Source of the DNA: Candidatus Marinacidobacterium sp.
Lineage (GTDB): Bacteria > Acidobacteriota > Vicinamibacteria > Marinacidobacterales > Marinacidobacteraceae
Direction: 5' to 3'
DNA: 64,000 nucleotides
Assembly: GCA_965204755.1 (NCBI GenBank)
Contig: OZ242011.1
Coordinates: 2,304,001-2,368,000, forward strand
Shown piece after piece: positions 4,100-59,907 of this stretch (positions are counted from its first letter, which is position 1; each line of letters starts with the position of its first letter). The notes under the pieces were generated by a model. That model was not told the DNA's origin, ran no database searches, and was given only the letters and a program-made list of their open reading frames with translations. The translations under genes were made by a program, and so were the position numbers.

Positions 4100-5253
4100 C
4101 CGGGTCGGAGCGGAACGGTTCCGGGGCCGCGGGCGCGGCGGTCCTCCCGGCGCCCGGCGCCGAGCCGGCCGAAATGCCCGGCGCCGAGCCGGCCGAAATG
4201 CCCGGCGCCGAGCCGGCCGAAATGCTCGACGCGCCGGTCGAGGGCGCCGAGGCGCCCGCGCCCGCCGGAGAAGACGAGTCCCCGCCGGCGCCGGGAGCGC
4301 CGGGTGGCGGCTCGGCGGACACGCCCGGCGCGCCGGTCGAAAGCGCCGAGGCGGCCGCGCCCGCCGGGGGAGACGAGCCGCTGCCCGAACCCGTTCCCGG
4401 GGAAGAGGCGGCCCCGCTTCCCGACTCGCTGCTCGCCGCCGTGGAGGCGCTGCTCTTCTCCCACGGGGAGCCGGTCGCGCGGGGGAAACTGGCGCTCGCG
4501 CTCGACGAGCCCCCGGAGCGGATCGACGCGGCGCTCGCCGCGTTGGAAGCCCGCTGGAGCGCCCCGGCCTCCGGTCTCCGGCTGGCCCGGGTCGCGGGCG
4601 GCGTCCAACTCACCACCCGCGCCGAACTGCGGGAAGTGATCGAACGGCTGCTCGCGCCGAAGCGCGACGACGCGCTCTCCGAGTCGGCGCTGGACGCGCT
4701 CTCGGTGATCGCCTACCGCCAGCCCATCACCCTGCCGGAGTTGAACGAGTTGCGCGGGGTGAACTCGCAGAGCGTGGTCTCCACCCTGCTCCGCCGCCGC
4801 CTCGTCCGGGCCCGCGGGCGCAAACCCGTCGTCGGGCGGCCGCTGCTCTACGGCACCACCCCGGAATTCCTGGAGCGTTTCGGGCTGGAAGGGTTGGACG
4901 ACCTGCCGGAACTGCGGGAACTCGCCGACCCGACGGCGCCGCCCGCCCGGTCCGCGAGCGGTTCCGCCGGGAACGCGGAGGGCCCCGGCGAAGCCGGTTC
5001 GGGCCCCGGCGAAGCGGGTTCGGACCCCGGCGCAGCCGGTTCGGACGCTGACGCGGCCGGTTCGGACCCCGACGCAGCCGGTTCGGACACTGACGCAATC
5101 GGCTCGCCCGCCGACGCGGCCGGCTCGGACGCTGACGCGGCCGGCTCGCCCGCCGACACGGCCGGCTCGACCGCCGATGCCGCCGGCTCGGACACCGGCT
5201 CGGACACCGACGCCGCGCCGCTCGCGGAACCCGAATCCGCCGAACCCGCGTGA
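4096..5253 (+). CDS. scpB: SMC-Scp complex subunit ScpB with long low-complexity N- and C-terminal extensions
   Basis: VEALLF, LSVIAYRQPIT..ELRGVNS and GRPLLYGTTPEFLERFGL. ATGA coupling to scpA. Confidence 0.93.
   Translation: MTGSERNGSGAAGAAVLPAPGAEPAEMPGAEPAEMPGAEPAEMLDAPVEGAEAPAPAGEDESPPAPGAPGGGSADTPGAPVESAEAAAPAGGDEPLPEPVPGEEAAPLPDSLLAAVEALLFSHGEPVARGKLALALDEPPERIDAALAALEARWSAPASGLRLARVAGGVQLTTRAELREVIERLLAPKRDDALSESALDALSVIAYRQPITLPELNELRGVNSQSVVSTLLRRRLVRARGRKPVVGRPLLYGTTPEFLERFGLEGLDDLPELRELADPTAPPARSASGSAGNAEGPGEAGSGPGEAGSDPGAAGSDADAAGSDPDAAGSDTDAIGSPADAAGSDADAAGSPADTAGSTADAAGSDTGSDTDAAPLAEPESAEPA
4153..4224 (+). repeat. 24-bp perfect tandem repeat x3 (encoding PGAEPAEM) in the scpB 5' region
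   Basis: CCCGGCGCCGAGCCGGCCGAAATG at 4153, 4177 and 4201. Confidence 0.92.
4980..5212 (+). repeat. Degenerate 21-bp tandem repeat (about 10 units, 7-aa AGSDxxA/AGSPADA) in the scpB 3' region
   Basis: Recurring GCCGG(T/C)TCG core with a 21-nt period; peptide GSGPGEA-GSDPGAA-GSDADAA-GSDPDAA... Confidence 0.85.
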
Positions 5254-6737
5254 TGGCCGCGGAGCGGCTCCAGAAACTCATCTCCGCCGCCGGGATCGCC
5301 TCCCGCCGGGCCGCCGAACGGCTCATGGTCGAAGGGCGCGTGACCGTGGACGGGGAAGTCGTCCGCGCCCTCGGCGCGCGCGCCGACCCGGAGACCGCCG
5401 ATATCCGGGTGGACGGGGCGCGCCTCCGCGGCCTCGGCCGGCCCCGCCGCTATGTGGCCCTGAACAAGCCGGTCGGCCACCTCACCACCCGCTCCGACCC
5501 CTCCCGCCGCCCGACGGTCATGGACCTGCTGCCGCTCTCGCTCCGCTCGCTCTCCCCGGTGGGCCGCCTGGACGCCGCGAGTTCCGGCCTGGTGCTGCTC
5601 ACCGACGACGGCGCCTTGGCGCAGCGGATCGCCCATCCCCGCTACCGCCTGCCGAAGACCTACCTGGCCACCGTGCGCGGCCTGCCCGACGACGAGGCCC
5701 TCGCCCGCGCCTGCCGCGGCCTGCGCGTGGACGGCGAGTTCCTCCGCCTCGACGAGGCGGAAGTCCTCGCCCGCTTCCCCCACCGCCAGGAGAGCCGCCG
5801 CCGCGCCCGACTCCGCATCACCCTCCGCGGCGGCCGCAACCGCGAGATCCGCCGGGTGCTCGGCGTCCTCGGCCACCCGGTGGTCGAACTCCACCGCACC
5901 CGCATCGGCAGCCTCCCCGACCGGGGCCTCCGCCCGGGCAAGTGGCGGAAACTGACCTCCGACGAAGTGGACGAACTCCGCGCGGCGGCAGGCGCCGCCT
6001 CCGCCGAAGACTCGCCGGCGGAGGCGGACGAAGGCGGCGCTCCGCCGACCGACGACGGGACTCCCGAGCCGCCCGCCCCCGAACCGCCGCCGTTCGTGGT
6101 CGCCATAGACGGCCCGGCGGGTTCCGGCAAGACCTCGGTCGCCCGCGCGGTCGCGGACCGGTTCGGCCTCCCCTACTTCAACACCGGCGCCTCGGTTCGC
6201 GCCGTCGCCCTCGGAGCGATGCGTCTCGGCATCCCGCTGGACGAAGGCCCGCCCCTCCGCGCCGTCGCCTACCGGGTGATCCTCGACCCCGCCGGCCGCG
6301 TCTTCCTCGACGGCGAGGAGGTCTCGACCGCGGTGCGCGCCCCGGAAGTCTCGCGGGGCGCCTCCGAAGTGGCCGTCCACCCGGAACTCCGCGAAGTCCT
6401 CGCCGCCCGCTGGCGCAGCGCCGCCGGCGGCGGGGGCGTGGTGGAAGGCCGCGACATCGGCACCGTCGTCTTCCCGGACGCCCCGGTAAAGGTCTTCCTC
6501 GAAGCCCGCCCGGAGGTCCGCGCCCGCCGCCGGTCCTCCGACGAGGGCGACCGCGATGTGCGCGTGGTGGAAGCCGAACTCAAGGGCCGCGACGACACCG
6601 ACAAGGGCCGCGAAGTCGCCCCCCTCCGCCGCGCCGCCGACGCCCACACGGTGGACACGAGCGACCTGACCTTGGAGGAAACCGTGGATCAGGTCGCTGC
6701 CCTGGTGGCGTCCGCCCGCGACGAGCATCCCGGGTGA
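5250..6737 (+). CDS. rluB-cmk: Fused 23S rRNA pseudouridine synthase (RluB/RsuA family) and cytidylate kinase
   Basis: N-part: S4 domain (ERLQKLISAAGIASRR), LNKPVG, VGRLD and GRNREIRR. Pro/Ala-rich linker. C-part: AIDGPAGSGKT, VEGRDIGTVVFPDA and RARRR. One continuous ORF. Confidence 0.9.
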   Translation: MMAAERLQKLISAAGIASRRAAERLMVEGRVTVDGEVVRALGARADPETADIRVDGARLRGLGRPRRYVALNKPVGHLTTRSDPSRRPTVMDLLPLSLRSLSPVGRLDAASSGLVLLTDDGALAQRIAHPRYRLPKTYLATVRGLPDDEALARACRGLRVDGEFLRLDEAEVLARFPHRQESRRRARLRITLRGGRNREIRRVLGVLGHPVVELHRTRIGSLPDRGLRPGKWRKLTSDEVDELRAAAGAASAEDSPAEADEGGAPPTDDGTPEPPAPEPPPFVVAIDGPAGSGKTSVARAVADRFGLPYFNTGASVRAVALGAMRLGIPLDEGPPLRAVAYRVILDPAGRVFLDGEEVSTAVRAPEVSRGASEVAVHPELREVLAARWRSAAGGGGVVEGRDIGTVVFPDAPVKVFLEARPEVRARRRSSDEGDRDVRVVEAELKGRDDTDKGREVAPLRRAADAHTVDTSDLTLEETVDQVAALVASARDEHPG

Positions 6738-6857
6738 TCCGGCGAGCCGCGCCGTCCGTCGCGCGGCCGTTCCATAGACTCCCGCCATGATCCGCCGCTT
6801 CCAAGCCCTCGGCTACCGCTGCTTCCGGTATGTGGACCTCGAACTCGACCGGTTCCA
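6737..6857 (+). repeat. ~120-bp near-identical repeat (upstream region + 5' end of the ATPase gene); second copy at 8802-8920
   Basis: ATCCGGCGAGCCGCGCCGTCCGTCGCG..GTTCCATAGACTCCCGCCATGATCCGCCGCTTCCA..GACCGGTTCCA is present at both loci. Confidence 0.92.
6775..6786 (+). promoter_or_regulatory. Putative -10 element directly upstream of the start codon (leaderless promoter)
   Basis: TAGACT-CCCGCC-ATG with no Shine-Dalgarno. Same arrangement at 8838-8849, and TACACT at 39281. Confidence 0.55.
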
Positions 6858-8046
6858 GGTCCTCGTCGGCGCGAACGCGAGCGGAAAGAGCACTCTCTTC
6901 GACGCCCTGAGTTTCCTCGAGGGTCTCGTCGATGTCGGTCTCTTCAAGACCATAGAGAGCCGCGGTGGCAACTTCCAGGATCTCGTCTGGAAGCGCCCCG
7001 AGAGGGCCCTCGGCTTCGAATTAGCCGTGGAGATCGAAATCCCTTCGTCCGGACTCGCGGTGTACGCCGACGGACGATACGACCGCGTGCGCTACGAGGT
7101 CGAGATTCGCGAAGACACCTCTCGGGGACTCCACATCGCGCGGGAGCAGTGGTTTCCCCTCTCCGCCGATCCTACCGAGGACCGTGTGAGAGATCGCTTC
7201 CCCGATCCGCCGACACCGCCGGACACTCTCTTCACGCGTTTCGGGACCGGTCAGTCCGTGTCCGCCCCGAACGATCTGCCCGGAGGGGGTGACCGGACGC
7301 CCTTGGAGGTCGCTTACCCGGTCAAGGGGCAGAATCGTGAGTCGCTGCTCTCGGCTCTCAGGCGTCTTCCTGCCGTGCCCGGTGACGATTTCGCCGTGCA
7401 CCATTGGTTGAAGGGGGAACTGGGAGGCACGGTAGGCATGTCTCTCGACACCGACGCCCTCCGAAGGCCGAGTCCCCCAAACATGTTCCGTTACCCGCTG
7501 ACGCGTAGCGGCTCCACCTTGCCTTGGCTCGTTGATCGGTTGAGAGCCGAAGAGCGCGAGGACTACGAGGAATGGCTCCACCATGTGACCGCGTTCCTTC
7601 CCGACATCAGCAGCGTCGAGACGGTAGTTCGGCCGGAAGATCGACACGCGTATCTGGTCGTGCGCTACGCCTCCGGCCTCTTCGCGCCCGCTTGGGCCGT
7701 GTCCGACGGGACGCTTCGATTGCTGGCGCTGACGCTCCTCGCCTATCTTCCGTCGGAAACCGTTCCTTGCCGGCGATTCTTCATCGAAGAGCCCGAGAAC
7801 GGTCTCCATCCGGATGCGGTGGATGCAGTGTACGACTCGCTGGCTTCGGTGTACGACCACCAAGTTTTCGTGGCGACACATTCTCCCGCGATCCTGAGGC
7901 GCGCCTACCCGGAGGAGATCTTCGTCTTCGCCCGCGTCGAGGACGACACGACGGATATCGTGCGCGGCGACCGCCACCCGATGTTGAGGGAATGGAAGGA
8001 GAATGTGGATACGACGGCCCTGTTCTCGACGGGAGTCTTCGGTTGA
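6787..8046 (+). CDS. ABC/OLD-type ATPase, MADS MAD3-like (copy 1)
   Basis: Walker A GANASGKST, signature VSDGTLR, Walker B IEEPENGLHP, H-loop ATHSP. N-terminal MIRRFQALGYRC..LDRFQVLVG and C-terminal DIVRGDRHP match my recollection of MAD3-family proteins. Confidence 0.8.
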   Translation: MIRRFQALGYRCFRYVDLELDRFQVLVGANASGKSTLFDALSFLEGLVDVGLFKTIESRGGNFQDLVWKRPERALGFELAVEIEIPSSGLAVYADGRYDRVRYEVEIREDTSRGLHIAREQWFPLSADPTEDRVRDRFPDPPTPPDTLFTRFGTGQSVSAPNDLPGGGDRTPLEVAYPVKGQNRESLLSALRRLPAVPGDDFAVHHWLKGELGGTVGMSLDTDALRRPSPPNMFRYPLTRSGSTLPWLVDRLRAEEREDYEEWLHHVTAFLPDISSVETVVRPEDRHAYLVVRYASGLFAPAWAVSDGTLRLLALTLLAYLPSETVPCRRFFIEEPENGLHPDAVDAVYDSLASVYDHQVFVATHSPAILRRAYPEEIFVFARVEDDTTDIVRGDRHPMLREWKENVDTTALFSTGVFG

Positions 8047-8729
8047 GCGCGGTCGTCGGGGACCGGGAGGACCTGGTCGTCCTCGTCGCCGATACGGATG
8101 CGATGCGCGCCATCGAGGCGATACTGGCCCGGCCCACCGACCTCGGGATTCGACCGATTCGGTGCTCCGTGCGGCAGGAATCGGGTCACGATGCCGCGTG
8201 CCGGATCCGCGCCGCCGACAACCTTCGCGAAGTCCACCACCTCTTCCACCATGCGTTGGTCGTCTTCGACCACCACGGATGCAGCAGTTCGGCCCCCAGG
8301 GAGCGAGTCCAGGAAGAAGTGACGGCCCGCTTGCGGATCAACGGCTGGGGGGACCGAGCGAAGGCCATCGTCATCGAGCCGGAACTCGAGGCGTGGGCGT
8401 GGGGAGACACCGCAGGCTTGGCCGGCGCGCTCGGGTGGGATGAGCGGTTGCTCGTGGAGTCCTTGGCCAAACGGGGGCTCCGCGAACCGCCGGGGAGCAA
8501 GCCGGCGGACCCCAAGAAAGCGCTGGAGATCGCGGTGCGAGGGGCTCCGCATCGAAGAGGGAGAGGGCGAAAGAAACTGTCGCCGCGCCTGTATCAGGAG
8601 TTGGCGGCCGTCATCCCCATGACCGGCTGCCGGGACCCGGCGTTCGGGGAACTGCGGCGGACTTTGCGGACCTGGTTTCCGCCACGCGTCTCCGGGCTGG
8701 CCGGAAGCGATGCCCCTGTGTCTTCGTAA
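8043..8729 (+). CDS. MADS MAD4-like (TOPRIM/DUF4276-like) protein (copy 1)
   Basis: DLVVLVAD, LGIRPI, HALVVFD, IVIEPELEAWAW, KPADPK and CRDPAF. TTG start overlaps the ATPase stop. Confidence 0.75.
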   Translation: MSAVVGDREDLVVLVADTDAMRAIEAILARPTDLGIRPIRCSVRQESGHDAACRIRAADNLREVHHLFHHALVVFDHHGCSSSAPRERVQEEVTARLRINGWGDRAKAIVIEPELEAWAWGDTAGLAGALGWDERLLVESLAKRGLREPPGSKPADPKKALEIAVRGAPHRRGRGRKKLSPRLYQELAAVIPMTGCRDPAFGELRRTLRTWFPPRVSGLAGSDAPVSS

Positions 8730-8784
8730 GTTCCAGGCGCTGCGACAGACTCCGGTGCCCTGTTGCATCTCACGGGACCCCCTC

Positions 8785-8806
8785 CGCCGTGAGATACTGG
8801 AATCCG
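8785..8806 (+). promoter_or_regulatory. 22-bp motif shared with the region upstream of the DUF499 gene (20607-20628); possible extended -10 or operator
   Basis: CGCCGTGAGATACTGGAATCCG vs CGCCGTGAGATACTGAAATCCG (21/22 identical). Confidence 0.5.
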
Positions 8807-8849
8807 GCGAGCCGCGCCGTCCGTCGCGGTCGTTCCATAGACTCCCGCC

Positions 8850-10106
8850 ATGATCCGCCGCTTCCAGGCCCTCGGCTACCGCTGCCTCCGGTATGTGGAC
8901 CTCGAACTCGACCGGTTCCAAATCTTGGTCGGCGCGAACGCCAGCGGAAAGAGCACGATGTTCGACGCCGTGCAGTTTCTGGCCGACTTGGTCACCCGCG
9001 ACCTGCTGCGATCGGTGAACAAGCGAACGGACAACTTCCAGGACTTGGTCTGGAATCGGCCCGAGCGGGATCTGCGTTTCGAGTTGGCGCTGGAAGTCGA
9101 GATGCCGGACAGCGTGCGAAGCCTCTGTGCGAGCGACGAAGGCTACGACCGCCTGCGGTATGAACTGGCCGTGCGCGAGCACTCGCCGACCGATCTGCGC
9201 ATCGAGCAGGAACGGTGGTTCCCCGTGATTTCCTCCGCGCCTTCCATCGATCCGGATCGGGCTAGGTTTCCCGACGCTCCGGCGCCGCCCGGCACGATCC
9301 TGACGAAGTTCGGGCAGACTCCGGGCCTCTCTTCGCCCGGGGCTCTGCCCGGGGGAGGTGACCGAGGGACGCTCGGCGATTTTCTCTGGCTCGGTCGCGA
9401 AGAGAGCGAGTTGCACCATTGTTCGGTTCTCGGTCGGTCGGCGTCACTTCCGAACGACCAGCCTCTCCTGGCGTGGCTGAGAACGACACTCGGTCGGATC
9501 GAACTCGTCGCCCTCGACAGCAAAGTCCTTCGTCGTCCCGACCCGGCGGGCGGCGGGAATGGCGACTTGGGCGGGGACGGCGGCGGCCTGCCGTGGATCG
9601 TGGATCGTTTCCGCGCAAACGACCCGGGGGCGTACGAAGAATGGTTGGGCCACCTGCGTACGGCGATACCCGAGATCGAAGGCGTGGAAGTCGTCAAGCG
9701 TCCCGAAGATCGCCACGCCTATCTCAGGTTGCGTTACCGCTCCGGGCTCTCGGCGCCGTCGTGGTCACTGTCCGACGGCACGCTTCGACTGCTGGCGCTC
9801 ACCATCCCTTCCTATCTCCGGCAGAACAGACCTCTTTCCGTAATCGAGGAACCGGAGAACGGGATCCATCCGATGGCGCTCGACGCGCTGTACGCCTCGC
9901 TCTCGTCGGCCTACGGATCGCAGGTGTTCGCCGCCACGCACTCCCCGGTGCTCCTGAAGATGGCGCAGCCCGAAGAAGTCCTGTGCTTCGCCCAGGACGC
10001 GAGCGGGGCGACGGACATCGTTCGCGGTGACCGCCACCCGCTGTTGGCGGACTGGCGCGGCAGCGTGGACACGACGCTGCTGTTCGCCACCGGCGTGATC
10101 GGATGA
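8850..10106 (+). CDS. ABC/OLD-type ATPase, MAD3-like (copy 2)
   Basis: GANASGKST, LSDGTLR, IEEPENGIHP and ATHSP; clear paralogue of 6787-8046. Confidence 0.8.
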   Translation: MIRRFQALGYRCLRYVDLELDRFQILVGANASGKSTMFDAVQFLADLVTRDLLRSVNKRTDNFQDLVWNRPERDLRFELALEVEMPDSVRSLCASDEGYDRLRYELAVREHSPTDLRIEQERWFPVISSAPSIDPDRARFPDAPAPPGTILTKFGQTPGLSSPGALPGGGDRGTLGDFLWLGREESELHHCSVLGRSASLPNDQPLLAWLRTTLGRIELVALDSKVLRRPDPAGGGNGDLGGDGGGLPWIVDRFRANDPGAYEEWLGHLRTAIPEIEGVEVVKRPEDRHAYLRLRYRSGLSAPSWSLSDGTLRLLALTIPSYLRQNRPLSVIEEPENGIHPMALDALYASLSSAYGSQVFAATHSPVLLKMAQPEEVLCFAQDASGATDIVRGDRHPLLADWRGSVDTTLLFATGVIG

Positions 10107-10789
10107 GAGAACCCGAACGCGAGGGCGACCTGGTCGTTCTCGTCGCCGACGCAGACACGCGGGAAACGGTCGATTCGATCCTGTCGCGCCCGCGGGACTT
10201 GGGAATCCGTTCCATCGCTTACCGGATCGAGCGCCACCCGAATCGGGATCCGGGATGTCGGTTGCAGTCGGTGGAGTTCCTCCGAAAATTCCTGAGGGGC
10301 TTCCGGCATACGCTCGTCGTCTTCGATTACGAAGGGTGCGGCAGCCGAGAGCCTCCGCGCCGTGTTCGGGACCTCGTCACGGATGACCTCGAAAGAAACG
10401 GATGGAAGGGCCGGGCGCACGCTACCGTGATCGCTCCGGAACTCGAAATCTGGGCGTGGGGCGACCCGACCGGCTTGGCCGGCGTCCTCGGGTGGGACGG
10501 CCCGTCGCTTCGCCGGTTCATGGCAAAGAGGCGTTTCGGTGTCCCCGGCGGGGCCAAACCACACTCGCCCAAGACGGCGTTCCGGCAGATGGTGCTCGGC
10601 GCGCCGGCCGCTTCTCGCAAGTCGCCGTCCTCGAGGCTCTTCGGACAACTCGCCGCGGTGGCCCGGCTGGACGGTTGCCGGGACCCGGCGTTTCGCGACC
10701 TGCGGCGCGCGCTCGGCGCTTGGTTTCCGCTCGAGCCGTCCGGCGCTCCGCGCGGCCGAGGACCCGGCGGCGCCGCGGTAAGGCGCTGA
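10103..10789 (+). CDS. MAD4-like protein (copy 2)
   Basis: DLVVLVAD, RDPGC, LVVFDYEG, APELEIWAW and CRDPAF; ATGA-coupled to the ATPase. Confidence 0.78.
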   Translation: MREPEREGDLVVLVADADTRETVDSILSRPRDLGIRSIAYRIERHPNRDPGCRLQSVEFLRKFLRGFRHTLVVFDYEGCGSREPPRRVRDLVTDDLERNGWKGRAHATVIAPELEIWAWGDPTGLAGVLGWDGPSLRRFMAKRRFGVPGGAKPHSPKTAFRQMVLGAPAASRKSPSSRLFGQLAAVARLDGCRDPAFRDLRRALGAWFPLEPSGAPRGRGPGGAAVRR

Positions 10790-10853
10790 CCGGGCGACGG
10801 CGTTTCGCGCCGCCGCGTTCGTCGACGATTCGGCGCGGCGGCGACGGGACGCG

Positions 10854-11597
10854 CTACTTCCTGGCGGCGCAGGAATCGGCGTGGGCGGCGAAGTCGAGTG
10901 GGGCGGGTGGAGTGAAGGTGACGGCGTACGCCCCTTTCGGAGCGGGGTGTACATGGCTGTGGCCCGTCGCGTGGGCGAACCACCCGTTGTCTTCGCCGAT
11001 CCACAACTCGTTCCCCCGGATGCGGATTTTCCCGTTCCAGCGGTCGCCGAGCGGGACTTCGTCCAACTTCCGCAGGACGATCCGTTCGCGGACGGCGGGG
11101 CTGGTCGCGCCTCGCCGCGCGGCAGGCGCCGGCTGCATCTCCTCGGCGAACTCGATGACGGCCAACAACAGGTTGCGGAAGGATCCCGAACCGCCTCCGC
11201 TTTCCGAGATGAAGAACACCTGGACGCCGGAGTCGGTTCGCCCCACATACTGGTAGCCGAAGTAGGAAGCGGGGCCGTAGCCGCTCACCATCGGTTCCAC
11301 CCTCAGGAAGGGACACTCTCCTTCCACCGGAACGATCTCCACTTCGTCGTCGTAACGGTCGTCGCCTTCGACCTCCGTGAGCGAAACCACGGTCGGACTG
11401 CTGCTCGCGTTGAACGGTGTGGAAATCTCCTGGACGATCCGCGGATGCACGAACGGAGCGCGGGCGAAGGAACGCGCGGCGGCGATCGTCCGCACCGGGA
11501 TGGCGGCCGGCTGTTCGGCCGGAGCGAAAACGGCGGCCGCCGTCGGCGAGAGCCCCGCCGCGCCGAACAGGGCGGCGACGAAGAGGGTGTTCCTCAT
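10854..11597 (-). CDS. Hypothetical exported protein
   Basis: Signal-peptide-like N-terminus (MRNTLFVAALFGAAGLSPTAAA); protein-like core (FGYQYVGRTDSG, GGGSGSF, PLGDRWNG); AAAGGAG RBS; ATGA overlap with the upstream gene. Confidence 0.75.
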   Translation of the reverse strand: MRNTLFVAALFGAAGLSPTAAAVFAPAEQPAAIPVRTIAAARSFARAPFVHPRIVQEISTPFNASSSPTVVSLTEVEGDDRYDDEVEIVPVEGECPFLRVEPMVSGYGPASYFGYQYVGRTDSGVQVFFISESGGGSGSFRNLLLAVIEFAEEMQPAPAARRGATSPAVRERIVLRKLDEVPLGDRWNGKIRIRGNELWIGEDNGWFAHATGHSHVHPAPKGAYAVTFTPPAPLDFAAHADSCAARK

Positions 11598-12847
11598 GGG
11601 TGTTTCTCCTTTCCGGTCTCCCGCCGGCGTTGCGGCCCGGGGAGGTCGTCGGTCCGGGGCGGCCCCGGGCGGTCGTCGCAGCGGTCCGGGTCGGCGCCGC
11701 AGCGGAGAGCGGCCTCCGCCTCATCCACGGCGACGGTCAGATCCGAAGTCGCCAGACGCGCCTTTTTCCAGGTATCCAGCGCGCGGCGGTGGCGCCGGTA
11801 GAGCGCGGCGGACTCGTCGTCGGTGACGACCGGAATCTCGAGGGCGAACGCTGCGAACTTCGACATCATGGACGCTTGGAAGTACTCGGCCGAGAGGGAT
11901 GGTCGGACGGACTCCATCGGCACGGCGCACTCGGCGTCCGTGAGTCGGACACCACCGATCAGGGTCGGCCAGAAGTCCACATCGAACAGTCGGATGACCG
12001 CGCTGAAACCCATTACGCGGTCCCATACGCTCCTCACGGCGGCGTCGGCGCGAGCGAGTCGGTCCGCCCAAGCGACCTGAGTCTCCTCGACCCGCAGCCA
12101 CGCGTTGCGAGTGGCCGCCTGCATTGCTTCGAGGTCGGCGCGCAGTCGGTCGAGACTCAGGCCCTCGACCTCCCACGGCGCTTGCGGCGCGCCATCGTCA
12201 GGGGCCGCACGGGCGAAAGCGCGGGCAGCGGCGTACTGCCATAGAAGTTCCCGTCGTTCGCTCTCCGCGGCGGCCCGAAGGGCGGCGGTTCGATTTCGCC
12301 GGTACTGGACGAAATTCAGGTCGGCGGTGACTTCCAAGGCGCTTTCCATTGCGGGGATATCCAGTTCTACGGGACTCCGCTGCCACGGAGAGTGCGAGAC
12401 ATCGAGGAAACCCAGATAGGCGCTGACCCAACTTCGGTAATCGAACGGCAGTTCGGACGACATTTCATTGGCCAACTCCATGAACCGCCAAGCGCCGCGT
12501 TCGCACTGCTCGGCTGCCACCCGGCGAAGGCGGGCTTCCATGGACGCGACCCAAGCCTCGTGCGCCTCCGGGTATCGCTCGATGATCACTTCCACCGTCT
12601 CGTTCTCGCCTACCGACAGGGGCTCCCACACGACTCCCATCGCGAAGTCGGCGTACCCGTCGGGGTCTTCGGCGCGCATCAGGTCCGTATCCGGGGCATC
12701 GAGGTCGGCTGCGGGCGCGCCGTCGCCTTCGCGGCTCGGCGCGGGGCGGTGACCGGCGCCCTCGTCGTCCGGCCGGGTTTCGTCGGCGGGTTGGCCGAGG
12801 GTCGCCGCGGCGAGGACGACGGAGAGGAGGAGCGAAAGGGCAGTCAT
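11594..12847 (-). CDS. Hypothetical exported, largely helical protein
   Basis: Signal peptide MTALSLLLSVVLAAATLG; 417-aa ORF coupled to the downstream gene. Confidence 0.7.
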   Translation of the reverse strand: MTALSLLLSVVLAAATLGQPADETRPDDEGAGHRPAPSREGDGAPAADLDAPDTDLMRAEDPDGYADFAMGVVWEPLSVGENETVEVIIERYPEAHEAWVASMEARLRRVAAEQCERGAWRFMELANEMSSELPFDYRSWVSAYLGFLDVSHSPWQRSPVELDIPAMESALEVTADLNFVQYRRNRTAALRAAAESERRELLWQYAAARAFARAAPDDGAPQAPWEVEGLSLDRLRADLEAMQAATRNAWLRVEETQVAWADRLARADAAVRSVWDRVMGFSAVIRLFDVDFWPTLIGGVRLTDAECAVPMESVRPSLSAEYFQASMMSKFAAFALEIPVVTDDESAALYRRHRRALDTWKKARLATSDLTVAVDEAEAALRCGADPDRCDDRPGPPRTDDLPGPQRRRETGKEKHP

Positions 12848-12886
12848 GCGGGAGGTCCGTTCAGGGCGCGAAGCGCGGGGGCGCGG

Positions 12887-13717
12887 TCAGGGGAGGAGCG
12901 GAGAGCGGCGGCGGAGGCGGATTTCGATGGTGCGGCGGGCCGGGTTGTCGCCCGGGTCGCTGCCGTCCGCGAGGCCCCCGTCGCCGGGGAGGAGGGTTTG
13001 CCCGGCGGAGAGCGCGAGCACCAGGTAACCGCGCTCTTCGAGGAGCGGGGCGAGTCGGCGGGCGACCGCGGCGGCGCGCGCGAAGGCGAGCCCCACATTG
13101 TCGGCCGGCCGCAGCGGCCGGTAGTCGCCGGTGAGGTACTCGCCGAGCGCCTCGTCGAGATTGCTTCGGCCGCCGATGGGCCGCTCGTCGGTGTGGCCGA
13201 TGACCTCGACCACATCGGCGGCGTATTCCTCCGCGTACCTCTCGATGAGCGGAACGACTTCGGCGCGGAGGCGTTGCGCGAACTCCGAAGAGATCCGGTT
13301 CGTCGCCGAGGGGAAGACATACCCGTCCGCTTCCCGCAGCCGGATGATCGGCGGCCACCGGTGTCCGGCGGCATTCCCCGGCTCGGCCGAGACCGCTTCG
13401 TTCGCGCGGCGGGACGCCGAAACCGGCGCCCCGTCGGGATTCCCCCGTCCGTCGGCGGAGTGGCTCGACGCCGTTTCGACCGGCGCCGGCGACCCGGCGT
13501 CGGGCGGGGCCCCGACCGCGGCGTCCGCGGCGTCCGCGCCCGCCGCGGTCGTTTCCGCGAACCGCAGTCCCGGTTCGGTGTCCGCGGCGGTCCAACTGAA
13601 CGCGAGCAGCAGCAACACCAGGATGAAGGTGATCACCAGCATGATCTCGAGGGCGCTCGTCCCGAAGATCCGCGCCCGCCGGACCTCGCGGTCGAACGCC
13701 AGCGTCGAAGGCTTCAT
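12887..13717 (-). CDS. MotB/ZorB-like protein: single TM helix plus OmpA-like peptidoglycan-binding domain
   Basis: N-terminal TM (SALEIMLVITFILVLLLLAF), low-complexity linker, then OmpA_C-like motifs YVFPSATNRIS, VEVIGHTD, NVGLAFARA and RRTIEIRL. ATG at 13717 overlaps the upstream stop (ATGA). Confidence 0.8.
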   Translation of the reverse strand: MKPSTLAFDREVRRARIFGTSALEIMLVITFILVLLLLAFSWTAADTEPGLRFAETTAAGADAADAAVGAPPDAGSPAPVETASSHSADGRGNPDGAPVSASRRANEAVSAEPGNAAGHRWPPIIRLREADGYVFPSATNRISSEFAQRLRAEVVPLIERYAEEYAADVVEVIGHTDERPIGGRSNLDEALGEYLTGDYRPLRPADNVGLAFARAAAVARRLAPLLEERGYLVLALSAGQTLLPGDGGLADGSDPGDNPARRTIEIRLRRRSPLLP

Positions 13718-14805
13718 TCCGACTTCCGCGAGGCCTCCCGATCCCCCCGCGGGCGTCCGGTTCCGTTCGGTATCGGGGCCACCCACTCGAAGAACCGTCC
13801 GAACACGCCTCCCGACCGCCGGTCGCGCGCGATCGTCTCGTTCAACCGATCCACCGCCTGCGTGAGCCCGCGGATCGCCGGGCCGGCGTCCACCCGGACC
13901 CGGGGTTCGAGGTCCGTCAACCGGTCGAGCGCGGCGTGGAGTTTCTCGACCGTCTCGAGGGATCGCCGTTCCCGGAGATCCGCCTGCCGCGCCGTTTCCG
14001 ACAGGGTCGCGCCGAACGCCCGCACTTCGGAACCGAGCGCGCCGGCCGCCTGACCGGTCGAGCGCCGGACCTCGGTCAACCACTCGACGAGCGCCTCCGC
14101 GCCCTCGTTCAACCCGTCGGCGGCCTCGCGGACCTGCCGGGAGGCGAGTTCGGCGGCGCGGGAGATGCCGGCCGCCGCCTCTTCCAGACCCTTGCCGGAA
14201 GTCTGCGCCGAACGCGTGAACGCTTCGAGCCCTTCCGGCAACTCGGCGGCCCGCTGGCGCATGATCGCCAGCAACTGTTCGAGTTGCCCGGTCGCCGCGT
14301 CCGCCTGCCGGTTCAACTCGAGCGCCGCGTCCTGCAGCCGCCGCCGCATCTCCCGCTCGTACGCGTCCGCGTCGCCGCCCCGCTGCGTCAACAGCACCCG
14401 CATCGTCACCCCGAAGAGCGTGGTTACGAGGGCGACGCCGAACGCCGGCAGGAACGAAACGATCGCTTCGCGCGCCGCGTTCTCGCCGGGCCTCAGGTGG
14501 AAGCCGAGGACGACCAGCCCGGAGATGAGCGAGGCGATCGTGAACAGGAAGCCGAGGTAATGGATGTTGTCCCCGGCCTCGTGCCGATCCATGCCCAGGC
14601 GGTCGAGGCAATACCGGCGGTAGCCGATCATCACCGCGACCATCGCCGCGCTCGGCGCGGCCAGCGAGAACAGCGGCCGGCCCGGGCCGAGGAAACCGAA
14701 CACCACGGTCAGCAGCAGCGCGCCGAGCACCGCGAGGACGAAGAAACGGTCGTGCGCCGCCTCCCCGGCCCGCGCCGCCCGGGCGTTACCGGTCGGCGCC
14801 GACAT
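13714..14805 (-). CDS. MotA/ExbB/ZorA-like ion-channel protein with a long helical C-terminal tail
   Basis: Several N-terminal TM segments with channel-like motifs YLGFLFTIASL and FGVALVTTLFGV, followed by ~200 aa of heptad-like helix; lies directly upstream of the MotB-like gene. Confidence 0.72.
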   Translation of the reverse strand: MSAPTGNARAARAGEAAHDRFFVLAVLGALLLTVVFGFLGPGRPLFSLAAPSAAMVAVMIGYRRYCLDRLGMDRHEAGDNIHYLGFLFTIASLISGLVVLGFHLRPGENAAREAIVSFLPAFGVALVTTLFGVTMRVLLTQRGGDADAYEREMRRRLQDAALELNRQADAATGQLEQLLAIMRQRAAELPEGLEAFTRSAQTSGKGLEEAAAGISRAAELASRQVREAADGLNEGAEALVEWLTEVRRSTGQAAGALGSEVRAFGATLSETARQADLRERRSLETVEKLHAALDRLTDLEPRVRVDAGPAIRGLTQAVDRLNETIARDRRSGGVFGRFFEWVAPIPNGTGRPRGDREASRKSE

Positions 14806-15673
14806 GGCGGACCTCCGTGACCGTGGCGTCCCGTTCGCCGAAGTAGCGGTTCCACCAGGCGAGGTGTTCCGCGCCCTGGATGTCCGGGATGCTCAGGTAC
14901 TGCATGCGGGCGTAGATCAGGCTCACTTCGGCGCCGCCGAAGCCGGCCGCGCCCGGACTGGGCGGGGGCGGGGCCTCCGCCCGTTCGGCGCCGGGATGGA
15001 TGCCGAACCACGAAGTCAGCCCGAAGTTCTGCGGCGCGACGAAGTCCGAGACCACCGTCAGCGACCGGGCGGCATGCGCATACCGAGGGTCGTCGAAGAC
15101 CATCCGCGCCACTCCGTCCAGCGAATGGAGGAGGCTGTGGGAACGGTCGGGTGACCAACCCGATCGCTCTTCGAGGAGCGCGCGCAGCGGCTCGGAGAAC
15201 GCCTCCCGGTAGCGCTGCCGGGCGAGTCTCGGGTTCGCGTAGAGCGCGCTCGCCGTCGAACCGTCGCCCGGATTGCATTTCTCGATGAGCGGTTCGAGCT
15301 CCTCGCGCGCGTCGTAGGCGACTTCGTGGACCACGACCTTCGCGTAGAGCGGCAGGGCCTCCAGTTCCTCCACCAGCAGCCGCCGGACCTGGCGCGCCGT
15401 GTTCGGATCCATCGGCGCGAACTCGCCGGTCCCGGCCCACACCCGGCGGTTTCGTTCGAGGAGCACCGCGTGCACCCGGGGTATGAGCGCCGGATCGGCC
15501 GGGCAGAGCGTCGCCTCGTCCAGGTCCGCCGCGGCGGGCGCATTCCACCGAAGCGCCCCCAAGCCGACGAGGAACACCGCCAGCAAACCGCCGAGCAGCC
15601 AGGCCGCGCGGTCGCCGCCGTTCCGGCGGGAACGGCGCCGCATCGGCCGCCGCTTTCCGTACCTACGGGCCAT
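14786..15673 (-). CDS. Membrane-anchored, probably vWA-fold hypothetical protein
   Basis: Basic N-terminus plus TM (AWLLGGLLAVFLVGLGAL); alpha/beta pattern with LCP, KCNP and LTVVSDF. Fold assignment is inference. Confidence 0.6.
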   Translation of the reverse strand: MARRYGKRRPMRRRSRRNGGDRAAWLLGGLLAVFLVGLGALRWNAPAAADLDEATLCPADPALIPRVHAVLLERNRRVWAGTGEFAPMDPNTARQVRRLLVEELEALPLYAKVVVHEVAYDAREELEPLIEKCNPGDGSTASALYANPRLARQRYREAFSEPLRALLEERSGWSPDRSHSLLHSLDGVARMVFDDPRYAHAARSLTVVSDFVAPQNFGLTSWFGIHPGAERAEAPPPPSPGAAGFGGAEVSLIYARMQYLSIPDIQGAEHLAWWNRYFGERDATVTEVRHVGADR

Positions 15674-15676
15674 CGC

Positions 15677-17062
15677 TCAACTCCTCTGGCCGGACTCGAA
15701 CGAGTCGCCGGCCTGCCGCACCGCCTCGGAGAGCGCGCCCCGCGCCCGTTCGGCCGCGGTCTGCACTTCGGCCGGCGGCGCCGCCTCCGTTTCCGGCAGC
15801 GGCGCCGGCGCGGGGAGCGGCTCCAGGCGCACCGGATCGAGTTCGGGGCAGCAGGTCAGCCGCGACCGCTCGATCTTCCGTTCCAGGATGCTCCGCTCGC
15901 GTTCGAGTTCGTCGGCGAGCGCGGCGAAACCGCCTCGCGCCTGCTCGTCCCCGGCGAGCCCCGCGCGGTGGTTCTCGACCGCCGACCGGATGTCCCGAGC
16001 GCCGTCCTCCCGCGCCTCGTCCAGGGCCTCCATCGCTTCGACGCGCGCGTCGTCGAACGCCTCCCGGGTTTCGAGGAACTTCCGCGTCCTCCGGCTGTAT
16101 CCCGGATACGGATCCTCCATCGAGTACCCCTTCCAGAACGCGATGCCGGCGAACAGCATCCCGATCACCGCGAAGACCCACGACCGGAAGTCCGCGATAC
16201 CCAGGTAGTCCGCGGTGAAGGTGTCCCAGGCCAGCGACCCGGCCGCGGCCGCGTTCGAGTAGTCGGCGGCGCCCATCGCCTGGCGGAAGTGCCCGACGAA
16301 CAGGTTGAAGAAGAAGAGCCCCAGGCCGCAGCCGATGACGGCCAGCGCTCCGAAACCCTTCGCGAGCGGCGAACGATGGTTGGCGTAGCGGGCGAGGTTG
16401 CCGCCGAAGAAGGCCCCGCCGATGTTGACCACCGCGATCGTCGCGGCGACGCCCCAGGCTTCGATGAGGCCGCCCGCCGCGCCGCCCGCCAGCAGGGCGG
16501 CGTTCCCGACCGTCTCCAGCGCCGCGGCGCAGGCGGCGACCAGGCAGTGCCGGACGCGGTGCTCCGGGTACTGCGCTTCGCGCTCGATACCCTCGGTCTT
16601 GCGGAAGTCCTCGAGGTCGTCCTCGCGCCGCCGCGCTTCGTCGCGGGCGCGGCCGATCTCGCCGCGGCGCTCCTCCGCCTCGGCGCTGACGGCGGCCAGC
16701 GCCCGATCCCGCGCTTCCGCGATGTCCGCGACCGCGTCGCGCCGGTAGAGCCGCGCCCCGTACGCCGCGCGGTGCTCCTCGAAGCAGGAGCGCAGCCGGT
16801 GGTCGTGGACGGCCGCCTCTTCGGCGAGGACCGCCCGCGCGACCGCCGGTTCCGCGCCGTCCGGCGACCGCCGCAGCCGCTCCAACCTCTTCTCGAGTGA
16901 GCGTTCGTCGAACGCCGGCCACCGCCCGCCTTCCGCCGCGGCGGAAGCGACCGCCCCCGGCAAGGCGTCGGCTCGCGCCGGCAGCCCGGAGACGAGCCCG
17001 CGAAGGCCCTCGACGGCGCGGCTCCGCGGCGCGGGCCGCGCTTCGGTCAGCGCAGTGGACAT
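15677..17062 (-). CDS. Multi-pass membrane protein flanked by coiled coils
   Basis: N-terminal charged helices, about 4 hydrophobic segments, DPYPGY motif, C-terminal coiled coil; GAAGGAG RBS upstream. Confidence 0.75.
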   Translation of the reverse strand: MSTALTEARPAPRSRAVEGLRGLVSGLPARADALPGAVASAAAEGGRWPAFDERSLEKRLERLRRSPDGAEPAVARAVLAEEAAVHDHRLRSCFEEHRAAYGARLYRRDAVADIAEARDRALAAVSAEAEERRGEIGRARDEARRREDDLEDFRKTEGIEREAQYPEHRVRHCLVAACAAALETVGNAALLAGGAAGGLIEAWGVAATIAVVNIGGAFFGGNLARYANHRSPLAKGFGALAVIGCGLGLFFFNLFVGHFRQAMGAADYSNAAAAGSLAWDTFTADYLGIADFRSWVFAVIGMLFAGIAFWKGYSMEDPYPGYSRRTRKFLETREAFDDARVEAMEALDEAREDGARDIRSAVENHRAGLAGDEQARGGFAALADELERERSILERKIERSRLTCCPELDPVRLEPLPAPAPLPETEAAPPAEVQTAAERARGALSEAVRQAGDSFESGQRS

Positions 17063-17124
17063 GGGTATCCGTCTCCTTCAGGCTCGGAACGAGCCGCTCA
17101 CGGTGGTTCCCGGCCCCGGCATTC

Positions 17125-20106: not shown

Positions 20107-20534
20107 GGGCTATCTCCTTCGGAGTCGGGGGCGGCGGGGGCGGCGGGGGCCGCGGTTTCGGTCGGGGAAGGCGCCGCGGACGGCGCCAACGCCTCGGTGA
20201 GGACTTCGCGCACCTTCTCCACCAGCGGCTCCACCGGCTCGCCGGAGGCCAGTCGTTCAGGGGCGATGACGAGGCTGATCCCATCCACGATCGGGCGCGG
20301 AAAGCCGGACTTCGCCTTCCGCAGTTGACGGATGGCGGGCAGGGAGAAGTCCATTTCCCGGAGCCTCCGGTATTCCCGGAGCGCTTTCAGGTGTTCCTCG
20401 CCGTACTCGGCGAACTTGCGACCGCCGCCCGGCTTCGGACACACCTTGCTGGAGATGAGGAACCGCACATGCCGCGGGGTGAACCGGAGGCCGGATTCCT
20501 CCTGCAGGCGGGCGACGAGTTCAGCGAGAGTCAT
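20103..20534 (-). CDS. MerR-like helix-turn-helix regulator
   Basis: TPRHVRFLISSKVCPKPGGGRKFAEYGEEHLKALREYRRLREMDFSLPAIR; ATGA-coupled to the VIT gene. Confidence 0.8.
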   Translation of the reverse strand: MTLAELVARLQEESGLRFTPRHVRFLISSKVCPKPGGGRKFAEYGEEHLKALREYRRLREMDFSLPAIRQLRKAKSGFPRPIVDGISLVIAPERLASGEPVEPLVEKVREVLTEALAPSAAPSPTETAAPAAPAAPDSEGDSP

Positions 20535-23700: not shown

Positions 23701-23763
23701 ACGAGCCAACTCACCCGCTTCGTGGGCGGCCAGGCGGTGGTGAAGGCCGCCCCGAGAAAGTGA
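20707..23763 (+). CDS. DUF499 AAA+ ATPase of a restriction-like (DUF499/DUF1156/SNF2) defence system
   Basis: FAADL, FFENTYPTRGL, Walker A TSYGGGKTH, Walker B LILLDEL, YPFHPEL, FQRVRGMLRLL; Pro-rich linker near the C-terminus. Confidence 0.88.
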   Translation: MKTPTVFDLCQPRKEVLEGRVSDDQFAADLAAVLDETKAAPANYRDPARFFENTYPTRGLRSLLESVCGRLSGAAGDAPPIFRLDTSYGGGKTHGLIALAHAAGAPSEVPGDFLPPALRPKKTVRVAAFDGENADPANGRALGGFRPKTPWGEIAVQLAGRPGFDRVQKGDEEGIAPGADTIAALFGGEPALILLDELAVYLRKVKGRPGAAGQLTAFLTSLFKAVETAPEAALVFTLAIGKHGPIDAYADEHRALADDLSELRSVSARKATLLNPTEEDETAPVLRRRLFERIDESGAGEVVAAYRRVWKQHAGENELSPVARAPETVEHFRAAYPFHPELLDTLTRKTSTLADFQRVRGMLRLLTRTIAHLWSERPADAAAIHLHHVPVGSPANRRELLARLGQKTFESALDNDVEGSKGPSLAQRLDADHHSGRPPYALYAARAAFLHSFAFNEGLKGCSPRRLRYSMVGPATDFAFIEEARKLFQEQSAYLDDRPGAPLRFHAEANLNKILSNHEAIVDAEEVRAELRDRIQRIFGGKNRDLEPVFFPGGPSDVPDDPSDRPRLVVISPDAVDIRGDDDAAPEAILRIHQRKGGEEKSLRRRRNHLVFLAPDSGRKEKMRQRAARLLALRSLKKPEHLDDLADHQQAKVKEWAQGAEQEVALAVHQCYRRLFYPSTGLQPGRGDLAHAVLDDPAHSEKPGDGQRAVVRHLREDAEKLRLPEDQPDAPDYVRDKTPLKTKGEMTTADLRDEFRCVPALPMLIGDQVFCRGVVLGVEQGRFAYRSGDLLFGPGDPETVITVDDESRVATIQYAKNRGFWPRKPPPPPEPEPTPLGPAPTPPRPAPTPPGPTPTPPGPVPPGPTPPTPQPTPTEFLAEAPMREALTRLAEWAGTNAPNGLASISIRPQEPTDGFRLIRGANNPTVPGDKTAKMEGNYETAGGGAYCLQEFAGPLADAGPVADFLDQQFRDAASSDLTATVTLAFPEGAPAGAAWDKLTSQLTRFVGGQAVVKAAPRK

Positions 23764-23846
23764 CGCCCGCCTCCGCCCGGAGCACCGCCCCGGCCCCCGC
23801 CGAACGGCGCCGCCCCTCCGACCCCTCCGCCGCCGGGAACCCCTGA

Positions 23847-24338: not shown

Positions 24339-24348
24339 GACTTCCGCC

Positions 24349-27610: not shown

Positions 27611-27659
27611 GCCGGCAGGGGACGCGAACCGGGTGCCCGGCGCGTAGGAGGTGGGGGCG

Positions 27660-30575: not shown

Positions 30576-30687
30576 TCGCGCGGCGCCCGGGCGCAAAGGG
30601 CGACAGCGCCTGTCCACTGCGCCGGAGAGAATCCCCGCCCTCGTGATCGTCCGGGACGCCGACCGCCGACCCGCCCGAACCTGAACC

Positions 30688-33909: not shown

Positions 33910-33969
33910 CCACGGTCGGGCGCCCCTCCGAAGTCGGCTTGGTCGACGAGCGGCGCCCGAACCTATCCC

Positions 33970-36146: not shown

Positions 36147-36271
36147 CTCGTTCGCTGATCCTGAGCGGACGCGCCCTACACGGCCGAACCGGGCGGCCGG
36201 CGTTGCGACGGGCAGGTGGGCGGTAGAAGACCTCCGCGGAATCCGGCGACTGTCGGAAGGGGACTTGGCCT

Positions 36272-53937: not shown

Positions 53938-53938
53938 C

Positions 53939-59879: not shown

Positions 59880-59907
59880 CAGTTCACACCCCTCAGAAAG
59901 TCCTTCG

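Follow-up and report, generated by a model that had tools for sequence, protein, structure and literature searches.

Gene Pairs in the Window

A 64-kb stretch of the genome of Candidatus Marinacidobacterium sp. (assembly GCA_965204755.1, contig OZ242011.1, positions 2,304,001 to 2,368,000; hereafter the window, overall G+C 69.7%) was found to carry three two-gene units, designated pairs 1, 2, and 3. Each of them consists of a gene for an ABC ATPase similar to MAD3 of the MADS defence operon and a gene for a small Toprim-like partner similar to MAD4. The three intact, translationally coupled pairs reported in the first-pass annotation, which had been made from the sequence alone, were recovered at the same coordinates (Table 1). 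The listing of open reading frames (ORFs) and reading of the sequence showed that all six frames are intact and that, in each of the three pairs, the start codon of the partner gene and the stop codon of the ATPase gene share a 4-nt overlap. The very low E-values obtained with the NCBIfam models (about 1e-106 to 1e-116 for the ATPases and about 4e-47 to 2e-54 for the partners) indicate that the six genes are real and not chance ORFs. The three copies are mutually 46–54% identical; compared with pair 1, both other ATPases are 54% identical and both other partners 48%.

The G+C content of the pair regions was 0.62–0.70, versus 0.73–0.77 in the housekeeping flanks, and at third codon positions the respective values were 0.76–0.80 and 0.89–0.93. 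The lower values fit acquired DNA. A promoter consensus scan around both pair regions gave no promoter-like sites, and terminator-like sites around the same regions were no commoner than in shuffled sequences. The window was also scanned with Rfam (gathering threshold) and for tRNA genes, with no hit in either case; owing to the lack of tRNA hits, no tRNA-type integration site was found in it.

Assignment to the MAD3-MAD4 Family

The NCBIfam MADS3 model (NF047739) matched the three ATPases end to end: that of pair 1 with an E-value of 9.3e-106 and 354.5 bits (residues 1–418 of 419), that of pair 2 with 5e-108 and 362.0 bits, and that of pair 3 with 1.5e-115 and 386.8 bits. All three lie under the curated equivalog cut-off of 420 bits. 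In the case of the partners, the MADS4 model (NF047734) matched over the full length and gave 161.1 bits (3.6e-47), 168.3 bits (2.3e-49), and 181.7 bits (1.7e-53) for pairs 1, 2, and 3, which is just over the cut-off of 160 bits. As a reference we used the MADS operon of a Piscinibacter plasmid, in which all eight proteins score above the NCBIfam cut-offs (MAD3 547.5 bits, MAD4 233.2 bits). Over their full length, the pair 3 ATPase and partner are 33% and 34% identical to the reference proteins. The likeness to MAD3 and MAD4 proposed in the first-pass annotation was thus upheld both by full-length model matches and by 33–34% identity to a verified MADS pair. The window pairs are, however, a sister group of MADS MAD3-MAD4 rather than orthologs. 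The reference operon was one of four records, all below 33% identity, retrieved from a plasmid collection with the pair 3 ATPase. A Geoalkalibacter match from this collection was rejected as the same module, as its ATPase gene stands beside methylases and a NERD protein.

Among the PADLOC models, HEC-01A scored best for all three ATPases (3.6e-39, 1.1e-42, and 3.4e-47 for pairs 1, 2, and 3), mostly as two stretches, and mad3 ranked below it (4.8e-33 for pair 1 and 9.5e-25 for pair 2). The short PADLOC mad4 model matched the partners of pair 1 (1.6e-9) and pair 3 weakly, and the pair 2 partner had no PADLOC match. Pfam recognized only AAA_21/AAA_15 in the ATPases (AAA_21 at 4.7e-29 in pair 1) and assigned no family to any of the three partners. 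The module had also been called PARIS-like. The hidden Markov model search suggested for this question matched MADS3 and MADS4, the AriA models scored under HEC-01A, and neither Pfam nor PADLOC found a DUF4435/AriB-type protein among the partners. Membership in PARIS was rejected on these grounds.

An alignment of 53 ATPases revealed an invariant Walker A (G28, K34, T36), a signature-like S307-G309-T310, a Walker B/D-loop E333-P334-E335, and H363, the motifs being named by our own assignment. In the partner, residues D16, D49, D75, E113, E115, K152, and K157 are invariant among the three window copies, a close homolog at locus L001 (a Candidatus Marinacidobacterium genome), and the reference MAD4, and D49, D75, E113, E115, and K152 remain invariant in 44 sequences. 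D16 lies within an A-D-S motif, matching A11-D12-S13 named in PMC13662399 for the Pseudomonas protein (PaMAD4). The equivalent of PaMAD4 E83, as located by our approximate transfer of the Pa numbering, is not conserved in the partners.

The AlphaFold2 model of the pair 3 ATPase has a pLDDT (predicted local distance difference test) score of 87.8, and its top Foldseek matches in the PDB were PtuA, the SMC head, Rad50, OLD, and GajA (E-values 8e-13 to 1e-9). The model of the pair 3 partner (pLDDT 89.1) gave OLD nuclease C-terminal (Toprim) regions as all five best PDB matches, at weak scores. Of the earlier assignment of the partner as a Toprim protein, the Toprim-type acidic residues are present, and the fold is suggested by the model. 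A sequence search of a PDB copy lacking MAD3-MAD4 entries found only generic ABC ATPases for the pair 3 ATPase (best 5.3e-6) and nothing at E ≤ 1 for its partner.

Other MADS Genes in the Window and near Related Pairs

The window proteins were scanned with NCBIfam (44 proteins) and PADLOC (32 proteins). At E ≤ 1e-5, the NCBIfam MADS models matched none of the 38 other window proteins apart from a P-loop-only match of MADS3 to PtuA (3e-7). No hit was obtained at E ≤ 1e-4 when the reference MAD1, 2, 5, 6, 7, and 8 proteins were compared with the 64-kb window by tblastn. The PADLOC MADS matches concerned generic domains only: mad2 matched two methylases (1.5e-9 and 3.4e-13; HmaB and a type II methylase) and mad8 matched McrB (1.2e-6). 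The statement that the window holds no MAD2/5/6/7/8-like genes is accurate at the sensitivity of these searches.

Relatives were collected by scanning the contigs of one genome per species with a 44-sequence partner alignment. This resulted in at least 597 pattern matches, at least 559 of them confirmed, and the best 80 loci, picked by likeness to pair 3, were kept together with flanks of up to 10 kb (some contigs are short). In every one of the 80 loci the MAD4-like gene is directly preceded by a MAD3-like gene, and 64 of the 80 MAD3 genes show the 4-nt start/stop overlap. With the reference MAD1, 5, 6, 7, and 8 as single queries, tblastn at E ≤ 1e-4 gave no hit within this distance in any of the 80 loci, and MAD2 gave one weak hit (L068). 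Since the closest relatives carry no such genes nearby either, standing without the rest of MADS is normal for the clade and not peculiar to the source genome. The earlier description of the pairs as stand-alone is right as far as the absence of MADS from the window is concerned. The situation is not special, though, and the ortholog of pair 3 abuts a gene of another defence system, Hma (helicase-methylase-ATPase), as shown below.

One relative embedded in Hma (L058) reached 466.8 bits on the NCBIfam MAD3 model. This indicates that the model also accepts members outside MADS, so that the terms MAD3 (as a model) and HEC-01 overlap in coverage. The family is large: a profile search of 1.84 billion representatives (50% clustering) returned 1,768 partner sequences at E ≤ 1e-3, of which 715 reached E ≤ 1e-30. 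Some members are single genes in which the MAD3-like and MAD4-like parts are fused, an OLD-type architecture within the family; these are P0129 (656 aa) and a 712-aa ORF at positions 8537–10675 of locus L043, although the latter fusion could also be a sequencing frameshift. Beside the pair of L066, an Anaerolineae contig, a 652-aa ORF (10685–12640, minus strand) matches PADLOC mad3 (5.2e-53) and, weakly, mad8. Its kind is unclear; it may be a further gene of the ABC-ATPase type or an artefact of ORF calling.

Age of the Three Copies

A tree was built from 80 concatenated pairs: the three of the window, 76 from 75 of the related loci, and the MADS pair as the outgroup. Loci L003, L030, L032, L043, and L071 were dropped because their genes are split, fused, or short. 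All trees were computed with a quick search, and branch support is given by the Shimodaira–Hasegawa-like approximate likelihood-ratio test (SH-aLRT) only. The three window pairs and the L001 pair form one clade (SH-aLRT 100), within which pair 3 is joined to L001 (support 99) and pair 1 to pair 2 (90). The same clades were obtained when the ATPases and the partners were analyzed separately.

In public protein sets, each partner has relatives closer than its paralogs in the window. The closest were 93% and 63% identical for pair 1, 98%, 76%, and 60% for pair 2, and 98% (a fragment) and 67% for pair 3. In a 47-row tree of partners, each window copy fell into a supported subclade of its own (8, 6, and 7 rows). 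The word triplicated, in the sense of a recent local expansion, therefore had to be given up: the copies belong to three old subfamilies, and each is closer to sequences elsewhere than to the other copies. At 90% identity, the cluster of the pair 1 partner has 21 members, that of the pair 2 partner 18, and the third one 2. The first two clusters have eight identical longest-contig sizes in common, one of them 3,975,858 bases. The shared sizes, which are the only basis here, suggest that the pair 1–pair 2 tandem is conserved in related strains. A separate duplication was found in a Gemmatimonadota locus (L025), where two sister pairs (support 100) arose independently of the window lineage.

Linkage of Pair 3 to the Hma System

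The window contains an Hma system in which a Septu system is embedded between HmaC and HmaB (Table 1). The Hma and Septu assignments by PADLOC agree with those by NCBIfam and Pfam. With the tandem PtuA genes, which lie with 4-nt overlaps ahead of PtuB, the island contains ABC-ATPase paralogs for a second time.

Table 1. Coordinates of the three gene pairs, the Hma-Septu system, and the block between HmaA and pair 3 in the window.
Feature	Coordinates	Strand	Remarks
Pair 1 ABC ATPase (MAD3-like)	6787–8046	+	419 aa; ATG start
Pair 1 Toprim-like partner (MAD4-like)	8043–8729	+	228 aa; TTG start; TTGA overlap with the TGA stop of the ATPase
Pair 2 ABC ATPase (MAD3-like)	8850–10106	+	418 aa
Pair 2 Toprim-like partner (MAD4-like)	10103–10789	+	228 aa; ATGA overlap
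Hma system with embedded Septu	20707–33909	+	Septu between HmaC and HmaB
HmaC/DUF499	20707–23763	+	PADLOC HmaC 1.4e-97
PtuA, first	24349–25623	+	PADLOC PtuA 1.7e-96
PtuA, second	25620–26876	+	58% identical to first PtuA; NCBIfam PtuA 1.4e-75
PtuB	26873–27610	+	PADLOC PtuB 1.1e-51
HmaB/DUF1156 methylase	27651–30575	+	PADLOC HmaB 1.3e-74
HmaA PLD-SNF2 helicase	30688–33909	+	matches BrxH, PLD_Helicase, and HmaA models
Block between HmaA and pair 3	33910–39293		about 5.4 kb; unknown genes, relB copies, IS1634
Unknown gene	33970–34995	+	341 aa; overlaps next gene; no family in Pfam, NCBIfam, or PADLOC
P-loop protein	34992–36146	+	384 aa; weak BrxC/D-like match 1.1e-4, below cut-off
IS1634-family transposase	36639–38318	-	4.5e-95
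relB-like copy	38421–38645	-	75-codon ORF; no Pfam match
relB (RelB/DinJ-type antitoxin)	38649–38942	-	RelB 4.2e-20
Pair 3 ABC ATPase (MAD3-like)	39294–40547	+	417 aa; GTG start
Pair 3 Toprim-like partner (MAD4-like)	40544–41200	+	218 aa; ATGA overlap

At L001, HmaB shares 64% identity with that of the window and HmaA shares 72% over 657 residues. Just 24 nt after the HmaA stop codon of L001 starts the ortholog of pair 3 (MAD3 at 8751–10004 of L001; identity 66.5% for the ATPase and 67% for the partner). The window HmaA aligns to L001 up to its stop codon, and about 20 nt before the start of pair 3 align to the short spacer of L001. The block of about 5.4 kb was either inserted in the window or lost in L001, and in either case pair 3 was historically part of the Hma operon. 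Pair 3 is not stand-alone in origin and would first have closed this operon at its 3′ end. Pairs 1 and 2 are not embedded in Hma; about 10 kb and seven genes on the opposite strand lie between them and HmaC.

Within the block, the IS1634 transposase gene is flanked by an exact direct repeat of 201 nt (36335–36535 and 38447–38647), which is a relB-like fragment; a third copy, 73–95% similar, lies inside relB. IS1634-family elements make long target duplications. The repeat looks like such a duplication from a recent insertion. No recognizable toxin gene adjoins relB. The two overlapping genes at 33970–36146, directly after HmaA, are low in G+C, and a look-up of the 341-aa protein in the ESM Atlas gave only unnamed clusters. 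They may represent an unrecognized defence candidate appended to Hma.

Clustering of the ORFs over the 80 related loci left only three recurrent real neighbours of the pairs, namely HmaB (DUF1156 methylase), HmaC (DUF499 ATPase), and HmaA (SNF2 helicase). By tblastn, Hma genes surround the pair in 14 of the 80 loci, usually in the order HmaA-HmaB-[pair]-HmaC, the very arrangement on which Payne et al. based their definition of HEC-01. This count includes one locus with Hma remnants only (L038) and one short contig ending in HmaC (L063), and leaves out a weak helicase-domain match (L067). The two sister pairs of L025 (8562–16303) flank HmaC within a single Hma system. The partners of two of seven Hma-linked relatives matched the PADLOC HEC-01B models, all at E ≥ 1e-5. 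The nearest upstream and downstream ORFs of 60 non-Hma loci between L002 and L072, 113 in number, were also compared with PADLOC, the non-Hma loci among L073–L080 being left out. Nineteen of these ORFs, in 16 of the 60 loci, reached E ≤ 1e-10, some of them ambiguously.

Variable Middle of the ATPase

The first-pass annotation described conserved termini and motifs with a strongly diverged middle, and identity in a 20-residue sliding window bears this out. Among the paralogs it amounts to 60–95% at residues 1–40 and mostly 50–80% at residues 271–410, with dips to about 40% near 311–330. It falls to 10–40% at residues 171–240 and to 10–25% in the windows covering 171–220. The pair 3 and L001 orthologs are 20–40% identical at residues 161–220 and mostly 75% or more elsewhere. 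Across the family, column entropy and indels are highest between residues of about 81 and 210. In the AlphaFold model of the pair 3 ATPase, residues 127–183 have no regular secondary structure, and confidence is 57–80 over residues 151–215. The data fit a fast-evolving flexible insert. The residues with which Pseudomonas MAD3 binds MAD4, mapped approximately via the reference MAD3, fall in the C-terminal part (from 287), the conserved region here.

The ratio of nonsynonymous to synonymous substitution rates (dN/dS, Nei–Gojobori) was 0.38–0.64 at residues 161–250 versus 0.14–0.32 elsewhere, and it never exceeded 1. The synonymous rate is saturated (about 0.8–2.8, or not computable), so that dN/dS can neither show nor exclude diversifying selection. 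Of the diversified sensing surfaces proposed earlier, the variability of the middle is real, and a sensing role for this low-confidence coil is plausible as a hypothesis only; the proposed guarding of neighbouring systems is likewise a hypothesis.

Other Genes of the Window

Directly upstream of pair 1, a single ORF (5250–6737) joins a pseudouridine synthase (RsuA/RluB-like, residues about 4–246) to a cytidylate kinase (about 282–491) and stops 49 nt before the pair. The seven-gene block between pairs 1–2 and Hma (10857–20534, minus strand) consists mostly of genes without a family and has no notable match to a defence model; among its products are a VIT/vWA/DUF932 protein of 993 aa and a regulator of the MerR type. 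Beyond pair 3 are a PDC-S01 candidate (46480–47850; AAA_14/DUF4143, 1.3e-142), a type II methylase gene with an overlapping restriction enzyme gene (about 53000–54499), and McrB/McrC-like genes (58674–61374). The defence content of the window thus comprises Hma, Septu, PDC-S01, a type II restriction-modification system, and McrBC. It is a patchwork of defence islets with uvrA and other housekeeping genes between them. The closest relatives of its defence genes are acidobacterial, though genes of this sort are mobile.

Proposed Function and Alternatives

We consider it probable, at roughly 60%, that each pair is an anti-phage unit of the MAD3-MAD4/HEC-01 class that works without the rest of MADS, as a 2:2 DNA-cleaving complex by homology. 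According to this proposal, the ABC ATPase and the small nuclease of Toprim (DUF4276-like) type, which are encoded by translationally coupled genes, would assemble into a heterotetramer like that of Pseudomonas MAD3-MAD4. The ATPase dimer would scaffold and stabilize the nuclease, and the complex would nick or cleave DNA with Mg2+ or Mn2+. The module of this clade would act without a methylase, a kinase, or other MADS parts, either alone or in or beside Hma operons. The window holds three anciently diverged members, each of its own subfamily, two in tandem and one from the 3′ end of an Hma operon, which differ most between Walker A and the signature and may differ accordingly in their response.

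In favour of this proposal are the full-length homology to MAD3 and MAD4, the invariant catalytic residues, the fold matches of both models, the gene coupling together with the concordant trees and the fused forms, the lack of MAD1/5/6/7/8 hits in the window and the 80 loci, the defence context (Hma genes in 14 of the 80 loci, neighbours with PADLOC hits in 16 of 60 others, and the systems of the window itself), and the intact frames with dN/dS below 1. The biochemical model comes from PMC13662399, which describes PaMAD3-MAD4 as a 2:2 heterotetramer that hydrolyses ATP, binds DNA, and nicks or linearizes plasmids with Mg2+ or Mn2+; PaMAD4 alone was insoluble. HEC-01 is described in bioRxiv 10.1101/2024.01.29.577857 (Payne et al.) as an ABC ATPase and TOPRIM pair embedded in Hma. 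In PMC12881386, a HEC-01 from a cold-seep genome conferred protection on E. coli B against one or more of the phages T4, T5, and T7. A Toprim assignment of Mad4, as a DUF4276 protein, was made in the Menshen study, and Burman et al. placed "MADS3-4" alongside AbiL, OLD, Gabija, and PARIS in their list of ABC-ATPase/TOPRIM systems.

Several observations weigh against this proposal. The HEC-01 tested by Payne et al. gave no protection against any phage tried. In MADS, MAD3-MAD4 needs other genes for defence, and the methylation arm restrains its toxicity (mad5 could be deleted only together with mad2 or mad3). For PaMAD3-MAD4, PMC13662399 leaves the link between ATP hydrolysis and cleavage unresolved, and point mutations cut cleavage only modestly. 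In our own data, the ATPase scores below the MAD3 cut-off imply that the function may differ from that of both named relatives, and HEC-01B was matched only by the pair 1 partner (2.3e-4), not by those of pairs 2 and 3. The fold matches of the partner are weak, all with E above 1e-3 (E-values 2.4e-3 to 1.3e-2, template modelling scores 0.36–0.51), in a PDB copy from which the MAD4 structure is absent. Finally, 94 of the 113 nearest-neighbour ORFs had no match to a defence model.

The pairs could instead be non-autonomous nuclease arms of Hma, in which the HmaB methylase would provide the distinction between self and non-self, pair 3 would be the effector of the operon, and pairs 1 and 2 would act in trans. 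The position of the pair 3 ortholog right behind HmaA in L001, the 14 relatives in or beside Hma with their typical gene order, the two pairs inside one Hma system in L025, and the presence of the same module in a second methylation-based system, MADS, speak for such a dependence. The other 66 of the 80 relatives, however, have no Hma gene within the sequence available around them, and Hma adjacency is scattered over the tree in a manner that needs at least nine changes. The window HmaA carries a PLD-like domain of its own, the genes embedded in Hma are treated as separate systems by Payne et al., and pairs 1 and 2 lie far from HmaC behind genes of the opposite strand. We regard this explanation as unlikely.

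Lower still, and in our judgement improbable, stands the explanation that the module is not immune at all and that it is a toxic pair of the selfish, addiction type or an ATPase-nuclease of DNA maintenance, retained in multiple copies through drift or mobility. It would account for the toxicity of co-expressed PaMAD3-MAD4 (PMC13662399), the many relatives located among ordinary metabolic genes, the base composition of the pair regions, which is consistent with acquired DNA, and the HEC-01 without defence in the bioRxiv study. It agrees less well with the dense defence neighbourhood in the window, the repeated embedding in Hma, the structural kinship to OLD, Gabija, Septu, and PARIS-type defence ATPases, the protective HEC-01 of PMC12881386, and the tandem of pairs 1 and 2 that is apparently conserved in related strains. 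That the pairs are displaced parts of a complete MADS operon located elsewhere in the genome, and dependent on it, is very improbable. In its favour, the NCBIfam names are those of MAD3 and MAD4, and the MADS detection model, in which MAD6, MAD7, and MAD8 are mandatory, counts MAD3/4 as "accessory" genes that some systems lack. Against it, MAD1/5/6/7/8 are missing from the surroundings of all 80 closest relatives, the clade is separated from the verified MADS pair by a long branch, and the ATPases score 354–387 bits against 547.5 for a true MAD3 (in the source genome, the search for MADS genes covered the 64-kb window).

Going beyond the preferred reading of autonomous anti-phage units, the three subfamilies might form a repertoire of trigger sensors, in which the inserts (residues about 127–245) would read different phage cues, for example inhibitors of methylation systems, and one copy, tied to the 3′ end of Hma, would guard it as PrrC guards EcoprrI. 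MAD3-MAD4 would then be a portable nuclease arm captured independently by two unrelated systems based on methylation, MADS and Hma, and duplicated independently at least twice, in this lineage and in that of L025. We offer this extension as speculation and think it unlikely.

Comparison with Known Systems

The two-gene type is already catalogued, as MAD3-MAD4 or "MADS3-4" and as the PADLOC candidate HEC-01. In comparison with the pair of the methylation-associated defence system MADS (Pseudomonas aeruginosa SMC4386), those of the window have ATPases under the equivalog cut-off, show about one-third identity, and occur three times in 64 kb instead of once. With the 80 relatives they share the lack of nearby MAD1, 2, 5, 6, 7, and 8, the weak MAD2 hit at L068 excepted. 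In relation to the complete MADS, the core MAD6-8 and the adjacent MAD2/MAD5 were not met in the window. [quoted passage not shown] The differences are that the window partners hardly match HEC-01B (one of three), that pairs 1 and 2 are not embedded, and that pair 3 now lies 5.4 kb downstream of HmaA.

PARIS likewise combines an AAA_15/21 ABC ATPase with a separate Toprim nuclease, and the idea that a poorly conserved ATPase surface recognizes triggers originates from it. The window partners are, however, DUF4276/MAD4-like, whereas AriB of PARIS is DUF4435, and the AriA models match the ATPases only partially (E-values 8e-29 to 2e-25). Moreover, the PARIS complex is large, shaped like a propeller, and cleaves tRNA, whereas the one of MAD3-MAD4 is 2:2 and cleaves DNA. 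OLD and GajA also unite an ABC ATPase with a Toprim domain; OLD structures (6NJW, 6NJV, 6NK8) were the best matches of the partner, and 6P74 and GajA were among those of the ATPase. OLD (classes 1 and 2) and GajA carry both domains on one polypeptide, whereas the window pairs are separate genes with a stop codon between them. The Septu pair PtuA-PtuB has a related ABC ATPase fold (among the top Foldseek hits), sits in the same Hma operon, and shows tandem ATPase paralogs; its effector is an HNH nuclease, unlike the Toprim partner described here.

In the literature searched, we found no paper on a multi-paralog set of such pairs or on a link to the 3′ end of Hma, and these two features are novel by a small increment. 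The name MAD3/MAD4 is misleading, as the NCBI models label as MADS a large family that occurs mostly outside MADS; counts of MADS, or inferences from annotation, would err if they rested on MAD3/MAD4 alone. Within MADS the regulation of this nuclease is unsolved, and the family provides it in a simple form encoded by two genes; the three diverged paralogs of a single genome and the independently duplicated pairs of L025 are natural material for probing the ATPase insert. The link between pair 3 and Hma adds a further case of ABC-ATPase modules lodged in methylation-based systems.

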